Source: Candidatus Paenibacillus intestinavium | Lineage (GTDB): Bacteria; Bacillota; Bacilli; Paenibacillales; Paenibacillaceae | Direction: 5' to 3' | DNA length: 50,389 nucleotides | Assembly: GCA_019113605.1 (NCBI GenBank) | Contig: DXHF01000327.1 | Coordinates: 1 to 50,389 of the forward strand | Shown here: positions 5,959 through 24,296 of the stretch, piece by piece | Layout of the letters: each line of letters starts with the position of its first letter | Position numbering within the stretch: position 1 is the stretch's first letter | The notes under the pieces: generated by a model | Database searches by the model: none | The model's input: only the letters and a program-made list of their open reading frames with translations | Told to the model about the DNA's origin: nothing | Program-made: the position numbers and the translations under genes

Positions 5959-6220
5959 TGTTTTCCGTCCGTTTGTTCCGCGGCGGTCGATCTGGTAATA
6001 TTTTAGCCTTTGACCTAAAGCTATTAAGTGCTGGATCAACAAGCTTTGGCTTACTGGGTTTGGATGTAGGGGTAAGCCCGTACTTTATTGGGTCCCAACC
6101 TCGTTCGATGCATTCTTGGTAAGTGATCATGCGACTGTAACAGGCGTTAGATACTGACGATGATCTTTCAACGTTGGCATCCGGTCTAGCTGCGTTAGTT
6201 CGGATTTGCTTCATTTGCAA
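5951..6220 (-). CDS. Hypothetical phage protein
   Basis: AAAGGGTGG RBS; ORF track. Confidence 0.55.
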   Translation of the reverse strand: MQMKQIRTNAARPDANVERSSSVSNACYSRMITYQECIERGWDPIKYGLTPTSKPSKPKLVDPALNSFRSKAKILPDRPPRNKRTENND

Positions 6221-6262
6221 CCACCCTTTCTTTTAACATCACTAATGTTAGAGTTAGATGTA

Positions 6263-6934
6263 CTAATCATTGAAATGACCATACCCAAATGAAATGTTTA
6301 CCTGCTGCTCATTTACAGCACCAACTGCTAGAATGTCTGACATCATATTTGCAAATACAGACATTTCTTTATCATCCATTCCATCAATTAATCTAATCTC
6401 CGCTGCTTTCAATTTTCTACCTGAAGCTGCGGTCAATAAATCGATAATAGGATCAATTCGTTCCAATCGCTGTTTCTTCTCAGATTCGAGTTGTTCAGTT
6501 CTTGTTTGCTTCTGATAGAATTCATCCCAATCCTTTTCGTCATACCAAAAGCGTTCACCATGAAGCTCTGTGTAGACTGCTATCCATTGTTTTAACGCTT
6601 CGTCAGATGTTTGAATGAGGTCATGACATATTCCATTCAAACGCATCCCATTAGTCTTAACGCCACGTCCACCGCGTCCTCTAGGGAACACATGGTGAGT
6701 AGTATTAGCTTCTTGACCACAACCGCATTGGCAACGACCACCTGTTTCTTCAATCAATTCCTTCACAACGCTTGCAGGAAACTCAGCTCGATCTGCTTTG
6801 CTTGGATTAGATTTGTGGTGTGCCAAGATGTTCTGTTTCCATTCAGGAACGACTTTCTTTTCCTTTTTTCGATTTTGAAGGCTGCTATATGCTTTTTTCT
6901 CTTTTACTTGCTTCACTGGCTTTGGAAACATCAT
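6263..6934 (-). CDS. HNH endonuclease domain protein
   Basis: CQCGC...HHVFPRGRGGRG..TNGMRLNGICHDLI; AAAGGTGG RBS. Confidence 0.85.
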   Translation of the reverse strand: MMFPKPVKQVKEKKAYSSLQNRKKEKKVVPEWKQNILAHHKSNPSKADRAEFPASVVKELIEETGGRCQCGCGQEANTTHHVFPRGRGGRGVKTNGMRLNGICHDLIQTSDEALKQWIAVYTELHGERFWYDEKDWDEFYQKQTRTEQLESEKKQRLERIDPIIDLLTAASGRKLKAAEIRLIDGMDDKEMSVFANMMSDILAVGAVNEQQVNISFGYGHFND

Positions 6935-7027
6935 CTTTACACACCACCTTTCTAATGTTTTGTTACTTTTATTGTCGTTCACTATCACTACTAAGGCACT
7001 ACGGATTTCGGGAGCTATTTCTTTGCC

Positions 7028-7046
7028 AAGGAAAATTTTCCTGAGC
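7028..7046. promoter_or_regulatory. parS-like palindrome AGGAAAATTTTCCT, copy 1
   Basis: Perfect 14-bp palindrome at 7029-7042; the 19 bp match the reverse complement of 18739-18757 inside parB exactly. Confidence 0.55.
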
Positions 7047-7078
7047 TATTTAATTTACAAAGAACAATATATGTAAAG

Positions 7079-7097
7079 GGGAATGTGCGCTATTCCC
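7079..7097 (-). terminator. Hairpin downstream of the ribozyme, possible weak terminator
   Basis: GGGAAT-AGCGCAC-ATTCCC followed by CTTTA; the U tract is short. Confidence 0.45.
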
Positions 7098-7104
7098 TCG
7101 TGGC

Positions 7105-7171
7105 GGATATCCGCGACCATCGCCCTTGAGGGCTAGGTTTCGTTCGCTATCCTTACGAACTCATCAGGCGG
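7105..7171 (-). ncRNA. Type I hammerhead ribozyme with a loop II pseudoknot
   Basis: Minus strand CCGC-CUGAUGA-GUUCG(UAAGGAUAG)CGAAC-GAA-ACC(UA GCCC UCAA GGGC GAU)GGU-C^GCGG-A-UAUCC; all core residues are present; GGAUA in loop II pairs with UAUCC. Confidence 0.92.
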
Positions 7172-7314
7172 TCAATCTCATTCAGTGCATCATAAGGATT
7201 GAATCTTCTTGTCTCTGGACTGAATATTGGATCGTTTACCCTACAACTTCTCGCATCATATAAAAATTGAATCTCAAACCCTTTATGTGTCGTTAAGGTT
7301 GTCCATTCTTTCAT
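7153..7314 (-). CDS. Small protein (53 aa, not in the ORF track) whose 3' end overlaps the hammerhead
   Basis: AAGGAGTG RBS; MKEWTTLTTHKGFEIQFLYDARSCRVNDPIFSPETRRFNPYDALNEIDRLMSS*. Confidence 0.7.
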   Translation of the reverse strand: MKEWTTLTTHKGFEIQFLYDARSCRVNDPIFSPETRRFNPYDALNEIDRLMSS

Positions 7315-7376
7315 TTCAACCACTCCTTGTTTTTAATTTGGATTAACGCAACCCTAGTAGTTGCCCTCAATCATTA

Positions 7377-7574
7377 TCAAATTGAGAATCCAAGAATTCC
7401 TCTTTCATATGTGACGATAGTGATGCAATCGCTATCGTCGTTCTTGTGAGTGATATTTCCAAGCATCACCTCGTGACGTGCAGCTAGCTTATCGATGTTT
7501 TTCGTGTTGTGCTCCAAATCGACTACCTTTACCAAGTTCATATTCCCATCTACAATCTTAATGCATCCAAACAT
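7377..7574 (-). CDS. Small hypothetical protein (65 aa)
   Basis: AAGGAGG RBS before ATG 7574 (MFGCIKIVDG...); the longer track ORF runs through the promoter region. Confidence 0.7.
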   Translation of the reverse strand: MFGCIKIVDGNMNLVKVVDLEHNTKNIDKLAARHEVMLGNITHKNDDSDCITIVTYERGILGFSI

Positions 7575-7597
7575 TTTCAACGCCTCCTTCGATTTGT

Positions 7598-7699
7598 TAT
7601 ACGATAATCTATGTCGTATATAAGTTGTTACCTTAATAATATACGACTTCGTATATTTAGTCAATGGGTATTGAAAATTAATATACAACATCGTATAAT
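7598..7699. promoter_or_regulatory. Divergent sigma-A promoters with palindromic operators
   Basis: Minus strand TTGACT(7664-7659)-17-TATTAT(7641-7636); plus strand TTGAAA(7671-7676)-17-TATAAT(7694-7699); operators ATATACGA-CT-TCGTATAT 7639-7656 and ATATACAA-CA-TCGTATAA 7681-7698; extra half-sites at 7598-7604 and 7614-7620. Confidence 0.85.
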
Positions 7700-7722
7700 C
7701 TATTTTATAGAGGTGATTAATA

Positions 7723-7941
7723 ATGACCAAAACCGTTAAAGTAAGACCTAATCTCACAGCACTCTTGAAATCTAGAGGCATTACTCAAATGGAGTTATCC
7801 GAGATGACTGGAGTTCCACAAGGATCAATTAGTCGTTTTGATAAAAATGAACGTCATGAAGCAAATATTTTATTTTCAATATCGCAAGCATTAAATATTA
7901 GCATTGAGGATTTATTTGTCATTGAGGAGCAAGAAGGGTAA
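7723..7941 (+). CDS. XRE/Cro-C1 family HTH regulator
   Basis: LLKSRGITQMELSEMTGVPQGSISRF...ALNISIEDLF; GAGGTG RBS. Confidence 0.9.
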   Translation: MTKTVKVRPNLTALLKSRGITQMELSEMTGVPQGSISRFDKNERHEANILFSISQALNISIEDLFVIEEQEG

Positions 7942-7961
7942 AACCTCCTATGCTCCTTTTT
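7925..7961 (+). terminator. Intrinsic terminator of the XRE gene
   Basis: AGGAGCA...TGCTCCT stem followed by TTTT. Confidence 0.65.
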
Positions 7962-7988
7962 CATGACCATTGATTCAAGAATCCTTAA

Positions 7989-8297
7989 CTAATCGCCCAT
8001 CTCATACACTGGTATTTGAAGTTGGTCATCAGCTATAATTGCTTCGAGTTGGTTAGGATCGTTAATAACGCTCCAGTGACCGTTAGTTTTCATAAGAGCA
8101 ACTACATCAGGTGCATATGGCTCATCGATATTTACAACCAAATATGCATTAACCGATTTGTTATCTTTGATTCGTAATTCGTTCATCTTCCAAATGATTC
8201 GAGATAATTCACTGCGATCACGTTCGTCAAGATATTTTTCAACATCCTCATCCTTCAAAGCGGTAAACTTACGATTGTATCCACTAAATATTCCCAT
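7989..8297 (-). CDS. Hypothetical phage protein
   Basis: ORF track; coupled to DUF1064. Confidence 0.7.
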   Translation of the reverse strand: MGIFSGYNRKFTALKDEDVEKYLDERDRSELSRIIWKMNELRIKDNKSVNAYLVVNIDEPYAPDVVALMKTNGHWSVINDPNQLEAIIADDQLQIPVYEMGD

Positions 8298-8773
8298 TAC
8301 AATCTCCCTTTCTGTGCTGCAGCTCTCTTCAATAACTGTCTTTCAATTTTCTTTTGCGCTGCCTTTTTTTTCTTGATCTCAGATGTTTCCATCCATTCTC
8401 CCCGATGCTTAGTTAAAATTTGAATTTTCTTATCTGGAAACAAATTTGTGAATAATTTAAGTTTAAGCTTGAACGTTGGTGTTTCGACTCCCTTTACATC
8501 AACGATGATCTCCGATCCATCAGCAAACTTTAATAAAAAATCAGCAATGTAAGTAATCTTTGGAGCGTCCTGCAGAATGTAAGAAGGCTGACATATTACC
8601 TCGCTAAGCGTACCGTCTTGTACCATTGGTAGTAATTCTTGATAATACTCACCTTCTTTTTTGCTTGCGAAGCGAATGCCATTTATGTCTAGCTTGTACT
8701 GCTTCACTAACGCTTCTTCAAACAATGTTCCATCTGCGGTTACTATGACTGGCTTTGCATTATATTTATTCAT
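8297..8773 (-). CDS. DUF1064 family PD-(D/E)xK nuclease (putative resolvase)
   Basis: NKYNA, GIRF.SKKE..YY, YIADF, DVKG..T..FKLK. Confidence 0.88.
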   Translation of the reverse strand: MNKYNAKPVIVTADGTLFEEALVKQYKLDINGIRFASKKEGEYYQELLPMVQDGTLSEVICQPSYILQDAPKITYIADFLLKFADGSEIIVDVKGVETPTFKLKLKLFTNLFPDKKIQILTKHRGEWMETSEIKKKKAAQKKIERQLLKRAAAQKGRL

Positions 8774-9876
8774 TAGTCCTCCCTAACCCGGTACGGAAGC
8801 ACTAAGTAAATGCTATTTTCACCTTCACTTGTGATGTATATAGGCTTCATACTGCTGTTAACATTAATTGTTGCTTGTTCCGTATCTAGCGCTTTGAGAG
8901 CTTCAATGACAAACATCAAATTGAAATTCATTACTATTCCTTCACCGCTATAATCATCCAACCCCACTGAAACTGCTGCATCTCCACCAGAAGTATTAGA
9001 CTCTATCAATATTTCATTAGATAAAGTCATTTTCGCTTTTCTAACCTTTTCTTCCCTTGCTATAATTTCTACGTTTTCCAAAGCTGATAACATCTCACTC
9101 GTCTTAAAAGTTGCGCTATTGGAGAATGAAGTCTCTATTATTCTATCGATATTAGGGAAAGTACCTTCCAACACCCTAGAGTAAAATACAATCCCTTTCA
9201 TACGGGCTATAAATCCATCATCACCAAACTGAAATTCAATTTTGGCATTAGGTACAATTTTCATTAAAATATTTAATGTTTCACGACTCACAACAGTTGA
9301 AAATTCATTTTCCATATCAATAGTTAATTCAGTTCTCGCCATACGAGTGCGATCTGTTGCGGTTGCCCTTACTCTTCCTTCGAAAAACTCAAAATTTACT
9401 CCCATCAATATTACTGTTTCGGTCTTTTCATTTGCTGTGGCGAAAACAGTTTTCCGTACCATTTTTTTGAAATCTGTACCTTCCAGTATTACTGGTTCGG
9501 CTTTAACAGTCGGTATAGGAGGATATTCTTCAGGATCATTACCCATTAATTTGAATTTGTTTGAACTGCTTTTTATTGTGATTTCTAAACCTTTAGCTTC
9601 GAAAGTGAGGTCAGAACTTGCTTTCTGCACAATTTCCAGTACTCTGTTTCCCGGTATAACAATTATGCCAGGCTTGGTTACTTCGAAATCATCTGGACCA
9701 ATAGTTGCACTAATAAATACATGTGAATTTCCTGCTGTCATAGTTAATCCGTTCTGATCAACGACGAATAAGATGCCTGATAATATCGGAATAATATCTT
9801 TGCTTGGTAATGCACTAGCAACTTGTTTAAGCGGCTCAATAATAATATGCCTGTCTATACTAAATTTCATTTTCAC
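8773..9876 (-). CDS. dnaN: Phage-encoded DNA polymerase III beta sliding clamp
   Basis: 367 aa; IPILSGI, EEYP, ATDRTRMA, SRVLEGTFP and terminal YLVLPYR. Confidence 0.9.
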   Translation of the reverse strand: MKMKFSIDRHIIIEPLKQVASALPSKDIIPILSGILFVVDQNGLTMTAGNSHVFISATIGPDDFEVTKPGIIVIPGNRVLEIVQKASSDLTFEAKGLEITIKSSSNKFKLMGNDPEEYPPIPTVKAEPVILEGTDFKKMVRKTVFATANEKTETVILMGVNFEFFEGRVRATATDRTRMARTELTIDMENEFSTVVSRETLNILMKIVPNAKIEFQFGDDGFIARMKGIVFYSRVLEGTFPNIDRIIETSFSNSATFKTSEMLSALENVEIIAREEKVRKAKMTLSNEILIESNTSGGDAAVSVGLDDYSGEGIVMNFNLMFVIEALKALDTEQATINVNSSMKPIYITSEGENSIYLVLPYRVRED

Positions 9877-11578: not shown

Positions 11579-12043
11579 CTAAAATGGCAATTCATCATCC
11601 GATATATCAATAGGTTGTCCACTGTCTTTGAAAGGATCTTTATATCCTGTGTTTGAATGGTCCGTTTGATAATTTGAATCACCAGGATGATTGGCTTGCG
11701 AACTATCTTTTTTATTACTGTCACGATTAGATTCCAAGAATCGAACATTATCAGCAATTACTTCCGTAACATATACACGTTTCCCCTCGCTGTTTTCGTA
11801 ATTCCGCACTTGAATTCGACCTTCAACCGCCGTCAACCGACCCTTGCGCAAGTAGTTAGCGCATGTTTCTGCTAATTGGCGCCAAGTTACCACTGGAATG
11901 AAATCCGCTTCACGCTCTCCACCAGCAGATGAAAATGGTCTATCTACTGCCATGATGAATTTTGCTGTAGCTACTCCAGATGGTGTATAAGTAAGTTCTG
12001 GATCTTTCGTTAATCTTCCAATCAATATCACACGGTTCAGCAA
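11579..12043 (-). CDS. ssb: Single-stranded DNA-binding protein
   Basis: NRVILIGRLTKDPEL...EADFI; C-terminal ISDDELPF. Confidence 0.97.
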   Translation of the reverse strand: MLNRVILIGRLTKDPELTYTPSGVATAKFIMAVDRPFSSAGGEREADFIPVVTWRQLAETCANYLRKGRLTAVEGRIQVRNYENSEGKRVYVTEVIADNVRFLESNRDSNKKDSSQANHPGDSNYQTDHSNTGYKDPFKDSGQPIDISDDELPF

Positions 12044-13860
12044 TTTATTCCCTCCTTCATTTCACCTATAAATCTACTTGGAGCAACAAACTCTTCTTTA
12101 CCCCACTTGGAAGTTGATCTAATTGATGAGACTATCAAACTATCTTTTGCCCTAGTAACACCAACAAATGCTAGACGTCTTTCTTCTTCCATATTGGTTG
12201 TATTTCGATGTGGGAATACTCCTTCATTCATTCCGATAAGGAACACAGCAGGAAACTCCAATCCTTTACTGCCGTGAATGGTCATTACCTTTACAGCATC
12301 CCGATCTTCTAACAATTTCTCCTGGATATCTCTAATCTTTACCCATTTCAGAAAGGCAGTAGGTGTACATTCTTCGCCAGCTTTTTGTTGTCGTTCTGTC
12401 CAGTAAAGAATGTAAGTAATCGCTCGTTCAATTTCTTCTATCCGATTGTTCAATGATCGTTCTGAATAAAATCCCTTAAGCTCTAAGCGTCCTACGAGAG
12501 TAGCAAAAGCGTCTGAAGCAAAGTAACTACCTCTAATCCCTTCTGCCAGATCATGTAGATCACTTACGTGCTGAAATACGGACTGCTCTTGTGATCCTAT
12601 CAGCGCTCTCCAAAGCTCAATTGATTTATCAATTGCGACCTGCTCAGCTTGTTGTAACTGAGTATCTGTCAACTTTCTTTCAGGGAATTGAAGCACTCGC
12701 TTAAAACTCATTTCATCTGATGGATTAATTGCCCAATCCATATATGCTAGTAATGACTTAACATCTGGGCGCTTTAGAGGATCATCCGAGCCGCTTAATA
12801 TCATTGAAGGAATCTTTGCTTCTTTTAGTGCTCGATGTACTAGCTCAACTTGTGAGTTAGTTCTAGCCAAGACAGCAAAATTAGAAAAAGGAATCTCTTC
12901 ATTTTTATTAGAAATTTGACTCACTATTGATAAGGCTTCTTCTAGCGAATCATCGTAGTTCAAGATATTTATTTCTTGCCCACTCTTATTTGCAAAGAGT
13001 TCCTTTTTGGTTTGATTCACATTAAAAGAAATCAAATTATTAGCGGCATTAATTATCTGTACTGTTGAACGGTAATTTTGTTCTAGCTTGATAACTTCAG
13101 TGCCGGGGAAATCATTTGGAAACTCTAAAATATTCTCAACTCTAGCTCCGTTAAAAGAATATATTGTTTGAAAATCGTCACCAATTCCGAATAGATTTAC
13201 TGGATTAAGAATCTTAATTAATTGCAATTGTTCAATGTTTGTATCCTGAAACTCATCCACAAACACGTATTTCCAAAGCTTCCTATAACGCTCGACAATG
13301 TCTGAGTGCTTCGTAAATAGTTCAATGACCTTTGTTATCAGATTGTCCAAATCAACCGCATTGAAGCGCTTAAGCTGCCATTGATACTCTTTCCAAACGG
13401 CATCCTCTGGACTGTTCTTAGTAAATGACCACTTAGCCTTTTCCATCTTTCCGTATGTTGTTTTGTATTCTGAGGTTTCGATAATTGATTTAATAACTTC
13501 CGCTCGATCCTCTTGGCTGTAAATGGTGAAGCTTCGATCTAATCCGATTCGGTGACCCCACTCTTGCAGTATGCGAACTGCAAGAGCGTGGAACGTACAA
13601 CAGATTAATTTCTTTGTTTCTTCACCGATCAATGGTTCGAGTCTATCTTTCATTTCTTTGGCTGCGGCTCTAGTAAATGTGATTGCTATAATAGAAGAAG
13701 TGCCTACACGACAATTTTTGTTAAGATGGGCCAGTCTGTGAGTTAACGTCCTTGTTTTTCCTGTGCCAGCTCCTGCAAGCATCAGTATTTTGTTCGACTC
13801 AGACAAAACCGCCCTAGCCTGTTCCGCGTTAAGTCCTTTAGTTAAGTCCAAGCCAATCAC
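12037..13860 (-). CDS. UvrD/PcrA-like SF1A helicase (phage-encoded)
   Basis: AGAGTGKT, VDEFQD, GDDFQTIYSF, LEQNYRS, TIHGSKGLEF and EEERRLAFVGVTRA motifs are all intact. Confidence 0.93.
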   Translation of the reverse strand: MIGLDLTKGLNAEQARAVLSESNKILMLAGAGTGKTRTLTHRLAHLNKNCRVGTSSIIAITFTRAAAKEMKDRLEPLIGEETKKLICCTFHALAVRILQEWGHRIGLDRSFTIYSQEDRAEVIKSIIETSEYKTTYGKMEKAKWSFTKNSPEDAVWKEYQWQLKRFNAVDLDNLITKVIELFTKHSDIVERYRKLWKYVFVDEFQDTNIEQLQLIKILNPVNLFGIGDDFQTIYSFNGARVENILEFPNDFPGTEVIKLEQNYRSTVQIINAANNLISFNVNQTKKELFANKSGQEINILNYDDSLEEALSIVSQISNKNEEIPFSNFAVLARTNSQVELVHRALKEAKIPSMILSGSDDPLKRPDVKSLLAYMDWAINPSDEMSFKRVLQFPERKLTDTQLQQAEQVAIDKSIELWRALIGSQEQSVFQHVSDLHDLAEGIRGSYFASDAFATLVGRLELKGFYSERSLNNRIEEIERAITYILYWTERQQKAGEECTPTAFLKWVKIRDIQEKLLEDRDAVKVMTIHGSKGLEFPAVFLIGMNEGVFPHRNTTNMEEERRLAFVGVTRAKDSLIVSSIRSTSKWGKEEFVAPSRFIGEMKEGINC

Positions 13861-15982
13861 CGTCCGACTGTGGCGTTAAATCCCAATATGTCCAACCCTC
13901 TAGCGGAATATTTTCTACTACTCCAGCAATAATGATGTTGTCCAGTTTGTGAGATAGAGCATTTAGACCATTCAGAACATTTCGTAAATTTGTTTTATCG
14001 AGATTCTGAATTTCATCAAGCGCCAAAACTTTCAACTTTGGATTAGCTCTTTCAATCAAAGTGACCAAGAAAGCTGACAAGAACATTAGCTTTTCTCCTT
14101 TAGATAGAGCGTTGAATTTCATACGACGTTCATTCTTAATCCAACCGAATTGGAATACTTCTTTTCCAGTTTCTGATTCGGTAGAAAAGAAGCAAGGAAG
14201 ATTAATCCCCATCAAACGTAAATTCACATTTACAGCTTCTTCGATCGGACCAAGAATTGATTTTACTAACTCCCCTTGAACGCCCTTTGCTCCTAAAGCT
14301 AATGAAATCTTTTGACAAGCTTTGAAGTAGTATTGAGCCTTACTAGCGCTCATCATGGCTTGCTGTTTATTTGAAAGTGTAGTCTTTGCTTTCTCTTTTT
14401 CTTCGATTACTCGTTCAGCTTCTGCTATCTGATTGGTTAGAGCTTCTAACTGTGGTTCTAATATATCTAATGGTGCAAAGGCAGGCATTGGCTCGCCAAT
14501 TAATCGATTTAATTCTCCTTGCAGCATGATTTGACGATTAAGATTGTTCTGGTGTAATTGTTGCGCGTTTCTTTCTTCCTGCCTGAACGTTTCAATTTCA
14601 TTTCGAAGCTTATCGTTATTTTGAGATTCACTCATAAATTGTTCATGCAATTTCATCTTTCTCTGTTCGATATCATTGGATTGTGAGTTGAAATCTCTCC
14701 ATCCAACTTTCAAGCTATCTTTATCACCGTTAAGATCAGAAATTTTCGATCTTATCTTTGAACCATTATCATTTGCAAAATTTATAAATCCAGAAAAATC
14801 CTTGTCACAAGCTATCGCATTATTTAACACACATACACTTGCACCCTTTTCTTGAATATTCCGAATCACTGTGTCATAGGTGTGAAGCTCAGCTTCTAAC
14901 TTGCTAATTTCAGAGTTGATTTGAGCAACTTTTTCTTCTGTTTCCATTTTGTTGAATTGAAGAGCATTCATTTGTTTCTGCAAACCTTCCGACTCAACAG
15001 AAATGTCGGTTTGTTGTATTTGTTCTTTAATCGTTTGAATCTTGGATTCATAATCTATATTTTCAACGTTAGTTAATTTAACAGATAGAAAAGCTATTTC
15101 ATTTTTGTAATCAGAAATTCTTTGCTGATTCGCATCCCATTGACGCTTAAGCTCTCTTCCAGCAGTAATCTGTCCATGAACATCCGTATGATCTATACGA
15201 AGTCGAACTAACTCCTCTTTCTTCAATGAAATACCTCTGTCCGTTTCTTCAAGCTCATTTTTCATATCATTTAATTCACGTACAGCACCTACAGCATCGC
15301 TCTTTTTCTTATTCCATTCCTTTTGCTGACCATCGATCCAAGATATAACCGCTTGTAAACCTGATGTAAGCTCATAATCTTGCGGCCAATGAGACAGCGC
15401 TTCTCCAATTAATTCATTAGCAGCTTCATACACTTCAGGTGAATTTACCTTTAACACTTCTGTCAGTATGTGTTCTCGCAAATGAGTTTCAACACGTTCC
15501 CTTGTCCACGAGTCGTTAGTAATCGGAGAAAGCGAGTACATGTAATCACGCTTTTTAGCATCAGATAATTCCGTAAATACTGAAAAGTCGAATACAACAG
15601 GGAAACTACCAATTTCCGATGTGACTCTAGCTTCTAATTGAGCATTTGTTTTTTCTCCAAGATTAGGGGAAACGGTTAACGATTCGCTGTATTTGATATC
15701 CGTTTTACCATCACCATTCAGTTTTTCAGACCGCTTAATCGTGCGATCGAATGAAAATGAACCCGTTTGAAGACCAGCAGACATTACATCTCCACTGCTT
15801 AACTCAAATGTATCTTGAATCTTCTTACCCTCACCAGGTACATAACCTAGCATTGCATAGCCTACCATTTGCTGTATGGCAGACTTACCAGAGCCGTTAG
15901 GACCAATAAATATATCCATACCTGTTAATGGCTGCGTAAGTGTCTTTCCTTTTGCGTTGTGAATACGAATTGAATTAATCAT
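13838..15982 (-). CDS. Rad50/SMC-like ABC ATPase with a long coiled coil
   Basis: Walker A GPNGSGKS, central CVLNNAIAC, signature LSKGEK, Walker B LALDE. Confidence 0.85.
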   Translation of the reverse strand: MINSIRIHNAKGKTLTQPLTGMDIFIGPNGSGKSAIQQMVGYAMLGYVPGEGKKIQDTFELSSGDVMSAGLQTGSFSFDRTIKRSEKLNGDGKTDIKYSESLTVSPNLGEKTNAQLEARVTSEIGSFPVVFDFSVFTELSDAKKRDYMYSLSPITNDSWTRERVETHLREHILTEVLKVNSPEVYEAANELIGEALSHWPQDYELTSGLQAVISWIDGQQKEWNKKKSDAVGAVRELNDMKNELEETDRGISLKKEELVRLRIDHTDVHGQITAGRELKRQWDANQQRISDYKNEIAFLSVKLTNVENIDYESKIQTIKEQIQQTDISVESEGLQKQMNALQFNKMETEEKVAQINSEISKLEAELHTYDTVIRNIQEKGASVCVLNNAIACDKDFSGFINFANDNGSKIRSKISDLNGDKDSLKVGWRDFNSQSNDIEQRKMKLHEQFMSESQNNDKLRNEIETFRQEERNAQQLHQNNLNRQIMLQGELNRLIGEPMPAFAPLDILEPQLEALTNQIAEAERVIEEKEKAKTTLSNKQQAMMSASKAQYYFKACQKISLALGAKGVQGELVKSILGPIEEAVNVNLRLMGINLPCFFSTESETGKEVFQFGWIKNERRMKFNALSKGEKLMFLSAFLVTLIERANPKLKVLALDEIQNLDKTNLRNVLNGLNALSHKLDNIIIAGVVENIPLEGWTYWDLTPQSDGDWLGLN

Positions 15983-21598: not shown

Positions 21599-21643
21599 AC
21601 TTGCAAATTCCCGTCGCAAGGCGGTTCATTATAGATATAAATG

Positions 21644-21657
21644 AGAACAAGAGTTCT
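21644..21657. promoter_or_regulatory. LexA (DinR) SOS box upstream of the integrase
   Basis: AGAAC-AAGA-GTTCT matches GAAC-N4-GTTC, just upstream of the RBS. Confidence 0.65.
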
Positions 21658-21670
21658 GTTTGGAGGAAAG

Positions 21671-22813
21671 ATGATGGCTACATTTCGAAAACGTGGCACT
21701 AAGTGGGAATATCGAATACGTTATACCGATCGCCAATCTGGTAAGCGTAAAGAAAAAGCAAAAGGTGGATTCACAACAAAGAAAGAGGCTCAAGTATCAG
21801 CTATCGAAGAAGAATCAAAGATCAATCAGTTCGGTTTTGCGGAAAATGGTGATGAGTTTGTAGAGAAATACTTTGAAGAATGGCTTGAAGTCTTTAAGCG
21901 TCCTAATGTAAAACCCATCACTTATTCAGTACAAGAAAGAAACGTACGGTTGAATATTTTGCCACGTTGGGGAAACTATCGATTGAAAGACATAACAAGA
22001 GTAGAGTATCAGAAATGGATTAATAGTCTGATAGAAAAATATAGTGAGGGAACAATTCGAAGAATACAAAGTATTTTTTCTAGCGCAATGCATGATGCTG
22101 TTCATGAGTTCAGAATTATTCGTGATAATCCTATACAAAGAATCTCAATCCCAAGAGATGTAAAGACGAAAGAAATTTCCTTTTTTAATAAAGATGAGCT
22201 AGTTGTATTTTTGGAATCATTAACGATCACACAGAAAAATGCAAAGTATCAATTGTCAAAGCAATATTTTTACTTGTTCACTTTAATGGCACGTACAGGA
22301 TTGCGTATTGGCGAAGCTCTCGCTTTGAATTGGTCTGATCTACATGAAGATAAATTAATTGTAAATAAGACACTCGTCTATCCTACTAACACAACAGCTT
22401 ACATCTCCACTCCCAAGACTAAGAAAAGTAAGCGTGAAATCAAACTAGATGAATACACAGTAAAAATTCTTAAGCAGCATTCTCTGAATCAAAAACAAGT
22501 CATTTTGCGATATGCGAATTATCAATCATCCAAGAATGGATACATGTTCCACCAGCATGATGGTAGATGGCTGCGTACAAACGTAGTAAGAGATTATTTC
22601 AAGGTCGCATGTGAACGCGCTAGTGTACCTATACTATCTCCCCACGCTCTAAGACATACTCATGCTGTCCATCTTCTTGAAGCAGGAGCGAATATAAAAT
22701 ACGTATCCGAGCGACTAGGACACGCGAGCATCGTCGTTACTGCAGATACGTATTTACACATTACTGACAAAATAGAAGATGATAATCTTTCACTCTATTC
22801 TGCCTATATTTAA
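21671..22813 (+). CDS. int: Tyrosine integrase
   Basis: Arm-binding N-domain (GGFTTKKEA), TGLRIGEALAL, HALRHTHA, RLGH...T.DTY. Confidence 0.96.
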   Translation: MMATFRKRGTKWEYRIRYTDRQSGKRKEKAKGGFTTKKEAQVSAIEEESKINQFGFAENGDEFVEKYFEEWLEVFKRPNVKPITYSVQERNVRLNILPRWGNYRLKDITRVEYQKWINSLIEKYSEGTIRRIQSIFSSAMHDAVHEFRIIRDNPIQRISIPRDVKTKEISFFNKDELVVFLESLTITQKNAKYQLSKQYFYLFTLMARTGLRIGEALALNWSDLHEDKLIVNKTLVYPTNTTAYISTPKTKKSKREIKLDEYTVKILKQHSLNQKQVILRYANYQSSKNGYMFHQHDGRWLRTNVVRDYFKVACERASVPILSPHALRHTHAVHLLEAGANIKYVSERLGHASIVVTADTYLHITDKIEDDNLSLYSAYI

Positions 22814-22818
22814 TTTTT

Positions 22819-22930
22819 GGGGGCAAAACGGGGGCAACCGTCTTGCTCCCTCAAAATTAAAACCTCTTAAACCCAGGTACAGCAAGGATCTTTGGCTATT
22901 AACCAATGGACCCTTCCATTTCGAATTTTA
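22819..22930. other. Prophage att junction at the sufB 3' end, with arm-type repeats
   Basis: GGGGGCAA twice at 22819-22826 and 22830-22837 (11-bp period); sufB stop at 22899; the core cannot be fixed because the second att site is outside the window. Confidence 0.7.
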
Positions 22931-24296
22931 TAAGTCTATTCATCTCAACCGCATACTCCATTGGAAGTTCTCTCGTGAACGGCTCGATAAAGCCCATTAC
23001 GATCATTTGTGTCGCTTCGACTTCACTTAGACCACGACTCATTAGGTAGAACAATTGCTCATCGGAAACTTTCGAAACTGTTGCTTCATGCTCAAGTGTG
23101 ATGTTATCATTCAAGATTTCATTGTAAGGAATCGTATCCGAAGTGGATAGATTATCCAAGATCAATGTATCACACTCAATTGTAGATTTCGCACCGTCAG
23201 AATTGCGTCCAAAGTGAGTAAGACCACGATAAGATACTTTACCACCGTGCTTAGAGATTGATTTCGAAATAATCGTAGAACTTGTATCAGGTGCTAAATG
23301 AGTCATTTTCGCACCAGCATCTTGAAGCTGACCTTTACCTGCAACAGCGATAGAAAGAACAGTACCTCTAGCGCCACGACCACGAAGAATAACTGCAGGA
23401 TATTTCATCGTCAATTTAGAACCGATATTACCATCGACCCATTCCATAGAAGCATTTTCATCAGCTACAGCACGCTTCGTAACCAGGTTGTAGATGTTCG
23501 AAGACCAGTTCTGAATCGTAGTATAGCGTACACGAGAATCCTTCAGGCAGATGATTTCTACTACAGCAGAGTGTAGAGAGTTTGTGCCATATACTGGAGC
23601 TGTACATCCTTCAACATAGTGAACAGATGAGCCTTCATCAGCAATAATTAGCGTACGTTCGAATTGTCCCATATTTTCAGAGTTAATACGGAAGTAAGCT
23701 TGTAGTGGAACATCACATTGTACACCTTTTGGTATATAGATGAAGCTACCACCAGACCATACCGCACTGTTCAACGCAGCGAATTTATTATCTTCTGGAG
23801 GAATAATTGTAGCAAAATACTCCTTCATAAGTTCTGGATATTCACGAAGTGCAGTATCTGTATCTGTAAAAATTACACCCTGCTTCTCTAAATCTTCTTG
23901 CATGCTGTGGTATACAACCTCAGATTCATACTGAGCAGATACACCAGCAAGGAACTTTTGTTCAGCTTCTGGAATGCCTAGCTTATCGAACGTTTCTTTA
24001 ATTTCTTGTGGAACTTCTTCCCATGTTTTACCTTGCTTTTCAGAGGCTTTAACATAGTATTGAATGTCATTGAAATCAAGATCGCTCATATCGCCACCCC
24101 AAGTAGGCATTGGCATTTTGAAAAATGTCTCCAAAGATTTTAAGCGGAATTCAAGCATCCATTCCGGTTCATTTTTCATAGAAGAAATCGTACGGACAAC
24201 TTCTTCTGTTAGACCTTTACCTGATTGAAAGATTGATTTATGCTCATCGCGGAAACCATATTTATACTCTTCCATTTCTGGCATTGACTTAGCCAT
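22899..24296 (-). CDS. sufB: Fe-S cluster assembly protein SufB
   Basis: [35 protein letters not shown]. Confidence 0.98.

Follow-up and report, generated by a model that had tools for sequence, protein, structure and literature searches.

Read from the minus strand, positions 7171–7105 of the analysed window (one whole contig of Candidatus Paenibacillus intestinavium, 50,389 nucleotides) form a complete type I hammerhead ribozyme with a pseudoknot between loop II and the 3′ tail. The predicted 3′ cleavage product opens with the palindrome GCGGAUAUCCGC (7114–7103), which can fold into a 4-bp hairpin using the 3′ strand of stem I, and this hairpin is mutually exclusive with both stem I and the pseudoknot. 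We propose with fair confidence that the ribozyme cuts a phage transcript and that the 3′ piece then refolds, which would make the cut one-way and perhaps hinder RNase J1. The likely role would be to divide the transcript into separately end-protected pieces. The elements of the ribozyme and of the RNA behind it are as follows.

7105–7171, minus strand: pseudoknotted type I hammerhead ribozyme (sequence; sole strict descriptor match in the genome; minimum free energy (MFE) fold of 7175–7105).
7168–7171, minus strand: stem I 5′ strand CCGC, with its partner GCGG at 7114–7111 (sequence; alignment A1).
7161–7167, minus strand: core C3–A9, CUGAUGA (sequence; invariant except N7 in A1).
7142–7160, minus strand: stem II (6 bp) and loop II, with the pseudoknot strand GGAUA at 7152–7148 (sequence; covariation; cross-tail permutation).
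7115–7141, minus strand: GAAA, stem III and the GUC triplet (sequence; folding snapshots).
7105–7109, minus strand: pseudoknot 3′ strand UAUCC (sequence; descriptor; cross-tail permutation).
7103–7114, minus strand: predicted 5′-terminal hairpin of the 3′ product, GCGG-AUAU-CCGC, −5.8 kcal/mol (folding; relatives).
7079–7097, minus strand: second hairpin GGGAAU-AGCGCAC-AUUCCC, at a conserved place in subfamily members (5/6 pairs with two-sided change, 89% of A1 cells paired).
7054–7065, minus strand: boxA-like site GUUCUUUGUAAA (one mismatch to a 12-mer in one host 16S leader).

The consensus given in PMC3088659 is matched at all 13 positions of the core and in the three pairs adjoining it. 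C3 U4 G5 A6 N7 G8 A9, G12 A13 A14 A15 and U16 H17 (U7116, C7115) are unchanged, and pairs 1.1–2.1 (G7114–C7168), 10.1–11.1 (G7160–C7142) and A15.1–U16.1 (A7138–U7116) are intact. The three stems comprise 4, 6 and 3+4 bp without multiple mispairs; both ends lie in stem I and loops close stems II and III, which is the type I topology. Stem III pairs A7138–C7136 with G7118–U7116 (3 bp), followed by a 2×3 internal loop and the GCCC-UCAA-GGGC cap (7133–7122), and the GAAA (7141–7138) shares A7138 with this stem. C17 is 7115 and the predicted cleavage site lies between 7115 and 7114. GGAUA and UAUCC are complementary over 5 bp; pseudoknot-stabilised hammerheads are taken to have 4 bp or more joining loop II to the stem I extension. 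As far as sequence can tell, the motif conforms to the three acceptance criteria in the methods of PMC3088659.

This anatomy bears out the preliminary description, which had called a complete pseudoknotted type I hammerhead on the minus strand and had correctly placed stem I, the core, the stem III cap, the GUC, the predicted cleavage position and the loop II/tail complement. Its stem II, given as GUUCG/CGAAC, was right in position but one pair short: GUUCG(U) at 7160–7155 pairs with (G)CGAAC at 7147–7142 to give 6 bp with a closing U-G and a 7-nt loop.

A structure descriptor found one loose and one strict match in the window, and two loose and one strict in the 4.57-Mb genome (577 contigs, both strands), the strict match being 7171–7105. 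Over 300 dinucleotide-frequency resamples of the window it found two loose and no strict matches in total. The subfamily model likewise picked out 7171–7105 as the only copy across the genome. The folding energy of the locus is not unusual (z −0.56). A search with the Rfam hammerhead models, which the preliminary description had put forward as a check, came back negative: at the gathering score the window gave no match and no CL00010 family threshold was reached, Hammerhead_HH9 matching 7111–7171 (minus strand) with 14.1 bits (E 1.8), far short of its gathering score of 52. By its consensus the motif is a hammerhead, yet it is filed in no Rfam family. An Rfam scan of 1–23000 with E up to 5 returned no other credible RNA; thus no second Rfam-detectable ribozyme partners 7171–7105 on the contig.

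Hundreds of bacterial hammerheads were described in 2011, many of them near prophage genes (PMC3088659), and the preliminary description was right to cite such occurrences. The locus shares with those prophage hammerheads (Rfam clan CL00010) an identical core consensus, an open stem I and a location between small prophage genes, and its stem I/II pseudoknot is common to about 40% of the hammerheads in that study. On these sequence features, the ribozyme itself is an ordinary example of the pseudoknotted type I class that PMC3088659 describes for prophages. Unlike the clustered hammerheads there, it is single, with one match in the genome.

Relatives were gathered by pattern scans of viral contigs and GTDB genomes together with genome searches, giving at least 614 loci; at least 384 distinct type I hammerheads were kept after requiring four Watson–Crick pairs in stem I and removing duplicates. 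Since they comprise the matches listed, and stem I was fixed in most patterns, they are a biased sample of related sequences, and those with names come mostly from Paenibacillus-type Bacillota. Loop II paired with its own tail over at least 4 bp in 138 of 272 relatives, compared with a mean of 48.5 (maximum 64) in 500 cross-tail permutations, and over at least 5 bp in 67 of 272 compared with 14.7 (both among the matches listed, which are not independent). Because own tails pair far more often than permuted ones, the pseudoknot, judged by sequence statistics, is real at the family level.

We also aligned 11 close relatives with MAFFT (alignment A1), several of which had been picked by their tail motif. 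Overall, 86.5% of cells were paired and 11 of 21 pairs had changed on both sides, a level reached by 0 of 500 shuffles; six of the 21 pairs belong to the downstream hairpin. Stem I is paired in 97.7% of cells with a single pair showing two-sided change, stem II has such change in three of its four counted pairs, and the pairs of stem III never vary, nor does the core apart from N7. The pseudoknot shifts register, and 59% of its cells pair. Of the 74 genomes of the genus, 11 were matched by a model built on the closest subfamily, and three of these 11 had supplied training sequences. Two relatives, L071:4005-4125 (phage Pd_22F) and L622, carry two extra bases between CUGAUGA and stem II (CUGAUGA-UG-GUCC...).

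We compared the start of the predicted 3′ product across these relatives. Among long-stem-II hammerheads a 5′-terminal hairpin is predicted in 202 of 278, against about 105 in 60 tail shuffles (among the matches listed, which are not independent), while short-stem-II hammerheads show no enrichment (27 of 106 versus 24.1 shuffled, among the matches listed). Split by stem I strand, the observed and shuffled counts among the matches listed were 103/121 and 54.7 for CCGC, 30/36 and 15.0 for CCAC, 7/8 and 0.9 for CUAC, 11/16 and 2.9 for CCGU, and 48/83 and 29.3 for CCCG. The downstream arm copies stem I in many CCGC (76/121), CCAC (17/36) and CUAC (5/8) members but rarely in CCGU (1/16) and CCCG (11/83) members, which use shifted registers instead (all among the matches listed). 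In 102 of 198 hairpin-bearing relatives listed, the 3′ arm of the hairpin lies outside the pseudoknot strand. Shuffling nt 12–26 only left 84 of 106 far-arm hairpins (maximum 97 in 100 shuffles), and swapping GCGG for GUGG barely lowered the hairpin count (98 versus 103), again among the matches listed. Since most far-arm hairpins survive shuffling in these C-rich tails, the hairpin signal is, in sequence terms, partly compositional. A target-site duplication as the source of the downstream CCGC was judged unlikely by reasoning only, because the internal GCGG strand would also need to match the target.

Next, we considered the setting of the ribozyme. The first 22.8 kb of the window are the integrase end of a prophage, with genes for a repressor, helicase, SSB, replication initiator, beta-clamp-like protein, resolvase, HNH protein and methylase, nearly all on the minus strand. 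The integrase gene (21641–22813) borders the host suf genes, and late genes are absent from the window because the contig start cuts the prophage. The prophage location claimed beforehand is supported by phage replication, regulatory and HNH genes around the ribozyme and by the integrase beside the host suf genes. The integrase gene abuts the 3′ end of sufB (22899–24296), and the prophage encodes its own beta-clamp-like protein, UvrD-like helicase and SbcC-like ATPase (8773–9876 and 12037–15982, minus strand). The features nearest to the ribozyme are listed below.

7723–7941, plus strand: divergent Cro/C1-type HTH gene (HTH_26, by domain match), with a promoter-like site at 7671–7699 (plus strand).
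7636–7664, minus strand: promoter-like site TTGACT-17-TATTAT, which would drive two small genes and the ribozyme (consensus match only).
7377–7574, minus strand: 65-aa open reading frame (ORF) with the ribosome-binding site (RBS) GGAGG at 7587 (ORF and RBS).
7153–7314, minus strand: 53-aa ORF with the RBS AAGGAG at 7328 and the stop UAA at 7155–7153 (ORF and RBS; homologue P0006).
6263–6934, minus strand: HNH-endonuclease-like gene, the first downstream of the predicted cut, with a leader of about 180 nt and an RBS at 6952–6944 (PHROG HNH families, best E 8e-10).

The promoter-like sites come from a scan that found 8 where 5.2 were expected by chance. The 53-aa ORF runs through stem I, the core and stem II of the ribozyme and stops inside stem/loop II. 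It matched no Pfam or PHROG family, and a word-index homologue search returned only the query itself. A full HMMER search gave seven matches, of which P0006 (52 aa) is like-sized and 42% identical over its full length; the remaining six, being long or repetitive, were set aside. Given the RBS and this full-length homologue, the ORF is probably a real gene. A partial homologue (38% over 29 aa) lies at L058:2792-2965 (minus strand), downstream of a near-identical hammerhead, which suggests from sequence that cargo genes shuffle around hammerheads. The HNH-like gene is nearly absent from the genus, occurring in 2 of 74 genomes with this one included. Its leader contains a perfect 14-bp palindrome, AGGAAAATTTTCCT, at window positions 7029–7042, a possible operator or small hairpin.

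Behind the product hairpin, the 11 close relatives of A1 share the second hairpin followed by CUUUACAUAUAUUGUUCUUUG, several of the 11 having been chosen by this tail motif. The end of the tail is one mismatch from a 12-mer (C32 motif) in one of the three assembled 16S leaders of the host, which we take to be boxA; 53 such sites occur genome-wide. The 12-mer is found within two mismatches in 9 of 14 hand-listed subfamily members, which were partly chosen by tail (L620, a fifteenth, was left out). The arrangement resembles the rrn nut-like site, where boxB precedes boxA (PMC8632103), in that a hairpin is followed by a 12-mer one mismatch from the host 16S-leader motif, and differs from it in that the boxA-like candidate follows a ribozyme within a prophage mRNA. 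The idea that boxA generally accompanies hammerheads was rejected: 6 of 383 carried it against 8 in antisense, among the matches listed and with a pattern that missed some subfamily variants. Not being enriched over all hammerheads, the boxA-like motif can at most mark the subfamily, where common descent by itself might account for it. The conserved tail was also considered as a sigma-70 promoter (TTTACA plus 17 nt), and showed no acceptable −10 box by eye and none in the promoter scan. In phage Pd_22F (L071) the tail has the variant TGCTCTTTAAAA, presumably close to the enterobacterial boxA.

Upstream, 11 of 13 hand-picked antisense ORFs preceding subfamily-like hammerheads encode HTH_26 proteins, and phage Pd_22F has an annotated Cro/C1 gene at the equivalent place. 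The small genes between regulator and ribozyme vary by locus. In sequence, this is a Paenibacillus-type subfamily module composed of a divergent Cro/C1 regulator, variable small genes, the hammerhead, a covarying hairpin and a boxA-like site. With its conserved HTH_26 regulator and small genes that differ by locus, the unit has the look of a movable module whose cargo varies. The first cargo genes of many subfamily modules encode hydrophobic peptides of 34–45 aa that have a basic tail or head and belong to no Pfam family (L615:2145-2267, L616:1843-1965, L618:2115-2252, L619:1862-1981, L003:975-1085, L509:3069-3410, L510:2267-2398 and L622:2544-2669), and which may be akin to type I toxin or holin-like peptides. 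A YolD-like gene lies downstream of the module in L618 and L054.

We propose that the ribozyme takes up its fold while it is being transcribed, or between one round of 53-aa gene translation and the next, and that the minus-strand transcript would then be cleaved between 7115 and 7114, which would split the small-gene message from the HNH-gene message. The 5′ piece would end in stem III with a 2′,3′-cyclic phosphate, while in the 3′ piece the GCGG-AUAU-CCGC hairpin would take the place of stem I and the pseudoknot. This hairpin would drive product release and block re-ligation, and it would probably hinder attack by RNase J1 on the new 5′-OH end. A 5′ hairpin may block RNase J1, and one of 4 bp is a weak barrier. 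Further downstream, the hairpin and boxA-like tail may load Nus factors and lead to read-through, a step that we regard as only just probable.

Synthetic RiboJ-type insulators consist of a hammerhead followed by a hairpin, and their cut gives a defined 5′ end and a hairpin before the gene. They are engineered, with the hairpin added downstream, whereas the hairpin at this locus would be made from the ribozyme's own stem I strand and thus competes with the active fold. Among natural systems, the glmS ribozyme of Bacillota (PMC3997798, PMC6765202) is similar in its self-cleavage within a Gram-positive mRNA, predicted here, and in its 5′-OH downstream product. It has another fold and depends on a metabolite, and RNase J1 degrades its 5′-OH product (PMC3997798), whereas at the present locus a hairpin is predicted at the start of the product. 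Clustered prophage hammerheads cut themselves while being transcribed in vitro, those of A. tumefaciens also in E. coli, and activity was seen in 14 of the 18 consensus hammerheads assayed; a part in processing long phage transcripts was proposed, with tandem examples shown to cleave (Perreault 2011, PMC3088659). The available text of that paper makes no mention of a product hairpin, a stop-codon overlap or a hairpin-boxA tail like those of the locus, and our motif terms had no match in the gapped alignments of its Dataset S1, where near relatives may stand. Titles and abstract openings, with most subscription papers outside the scope, yielded no paper on a product-refolding hairpin or on boxA behind a phage hammerhead, and the accessible parts of PMC10085705 and PMC8782182 held nothing specific to this locus. 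The competing product hairpin (7114–7103), the upstream stop-codon overlap and the conserved 3′ tail had likewise escaped the preliminary description.

The roles of bacterial self-cleaving ribozymes are largely elusive (PMC6765202). The locus offers a compact test of the role of a bacterial hammerhead in a Gram-positive host, where RNase J1 attacks bare 5′-OH ends. Taking the idea further, we tentatively suggest a natural plug-in processing cassette of Bacillota prophages, with a regulated promoter, swappable small genes, a stem I strand recycled as a 5′ cap hairpin, ribosome gating and an rRNA-style antitermination site, although we hold this broader view with low confidence. If true, it would constitute a one-way, translation-coupled RNA insulator, through which a phage cuts its mRNA in an RNase J1 host and the downstream message is spared.

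The hairpin and the stop codons may also be read in a different way. The product hairpin and an upstream helix could form an off-state that folds before cleavage, with ribosome traffic on the 53-aa gene gating the hammerhead, such that only a regulated fraction is cut and downstream expression changes. We consider this unlikely, and it stays alive because longer RNAs are predicted to prefer inactive folds. In nearest-neighbour calculations, which carry no pseudoknot or tertiary terms, the hammerhead is the MFE fold only for 7175–7105; with the pseudoknot not counted, inactive folds are favoured by 3.5–5.5 kcal/mol in longer RNAs and by 4.5 kcal/mol in the 7190–7090 RNA. The energy gap of 5.1 here lies above the third quartile of relatives (median 2.1, third quartile 4.2, among the matches listed). 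In folding snapshots from 7200 the probability of stem I is about 0, and that of the stem III pair is mostly about 0.9 with a minimum of 0.56. The inactive folds use the product hairpin, which outweighs stem I by 1.4 kcal/mol when the pseudoknot is left out and is already present in the precursor MFE fold, as the gated model would have it. From 7200 they also use a 10-bp helix (7199–7190 with 7158–7149) that is specific to the window, sets 53-aa coding sequence against stem II/loop II and can sequester loop II. In RNA that is not being translated, the prediction is that this helix keeps the ribozyme inactive. Holding 7170–7141 single-stranded raised the hairpin probability from 0.10 to 0.79 at the 7104 length, which also favours gating. 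As a free duplex the pseudoknot contributes −3.5 kcal/mol, and the fold deficit would have to be paid by the pseudoknot, core tertiary contacts, Mg2+ and transcription order, which is plausible. Transcription yields stem I and the pseudoknot while the competing strand is still incomplete, which speaks against an off-state preceding cleavage.

Stop codons cluster sharply at the 5′ edge of the ribozyme in relatives, which counts for the preferred reading as well as for gating. Of 264 long-stem-II relatives, 225 have an ORF of 40 codons or more that ends no further than 60 nt from C3, and in 187 the longest nearby ORF stops between −12 and +18 of C3, against 12 of 265 in antisense (both among the matches listed, which are not independent). 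The peaks, among the matches listed, are at −5/−4 (70 of 225) and +4 (58); at +4 the stop is the UGA of the core itself, which is present by construction and accounts for 58 of the 187 stop matches. A ribosome terminating on the 53-aa gene would cover the 5′ half of the ribozyme, core included. The stop of this gene is at +15, a rare position among the relatives listed and unlike that of most of them. Compact phage genomes would place any intergenic element right behind a stop, and cargo genes differ between relatives, so that no common gating signal is evident. The product hairpin and the stop overlap are separable, mutable predictions, which set 'cut to protect' against 'cut to destroy' and 'regulated cut'.

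A further alternative, which we regard as improbable, is that the ribozyme sets the 3′ end of the regulator-controlled small-gene mRNA, with the second hairpin and CUUUACAU acting as a weak terminator and the 3′ piece being a short RNA or waste. Several members have no same-strand gene with an RBS for 400–600 nt (L615 +619, L618 +525, L509 +400; none listed for L512 and L619), and a U/A-rich tail follows the second hairpin. However, a terminator scan of 6200–8100 gave 0 sites, no promoter-like site separates the ribozyme from the co-oriented HNH gene downstream, and the conserved 12-mer resembles the host 16S-leader motif. It is very improbable that the ribozyme is a relic, inherited from an active ancestor and now trapped in competing folds or not transcribed: such folds are predicted in longer RNAs and 4 of 18 consensus hammerheads were inactive in the data given in PMC3088659, but none of the core, the stems, the pseudoknot, the product hairpin, the second hairpin or the tail is broken, though their sequences differ from those of relatives, and a decaying element should have lost some of these parts.

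We retain cutting followed by refolding of the 3′ piece as the preferred reading. Some relatives carry more than one hammerhead. Phages at L010, L036 and L069 have five within 2–3.5 kb, placed between successive small genes, and most of these have a predicted product hairpin despite differing stem I sequences. On a Paenibacillus ferrarius contig (L494 and L026), two hammerheads flank a single gene of 317 aa, integrase-like by eye, and the second hammerhead starts right behind its stop.
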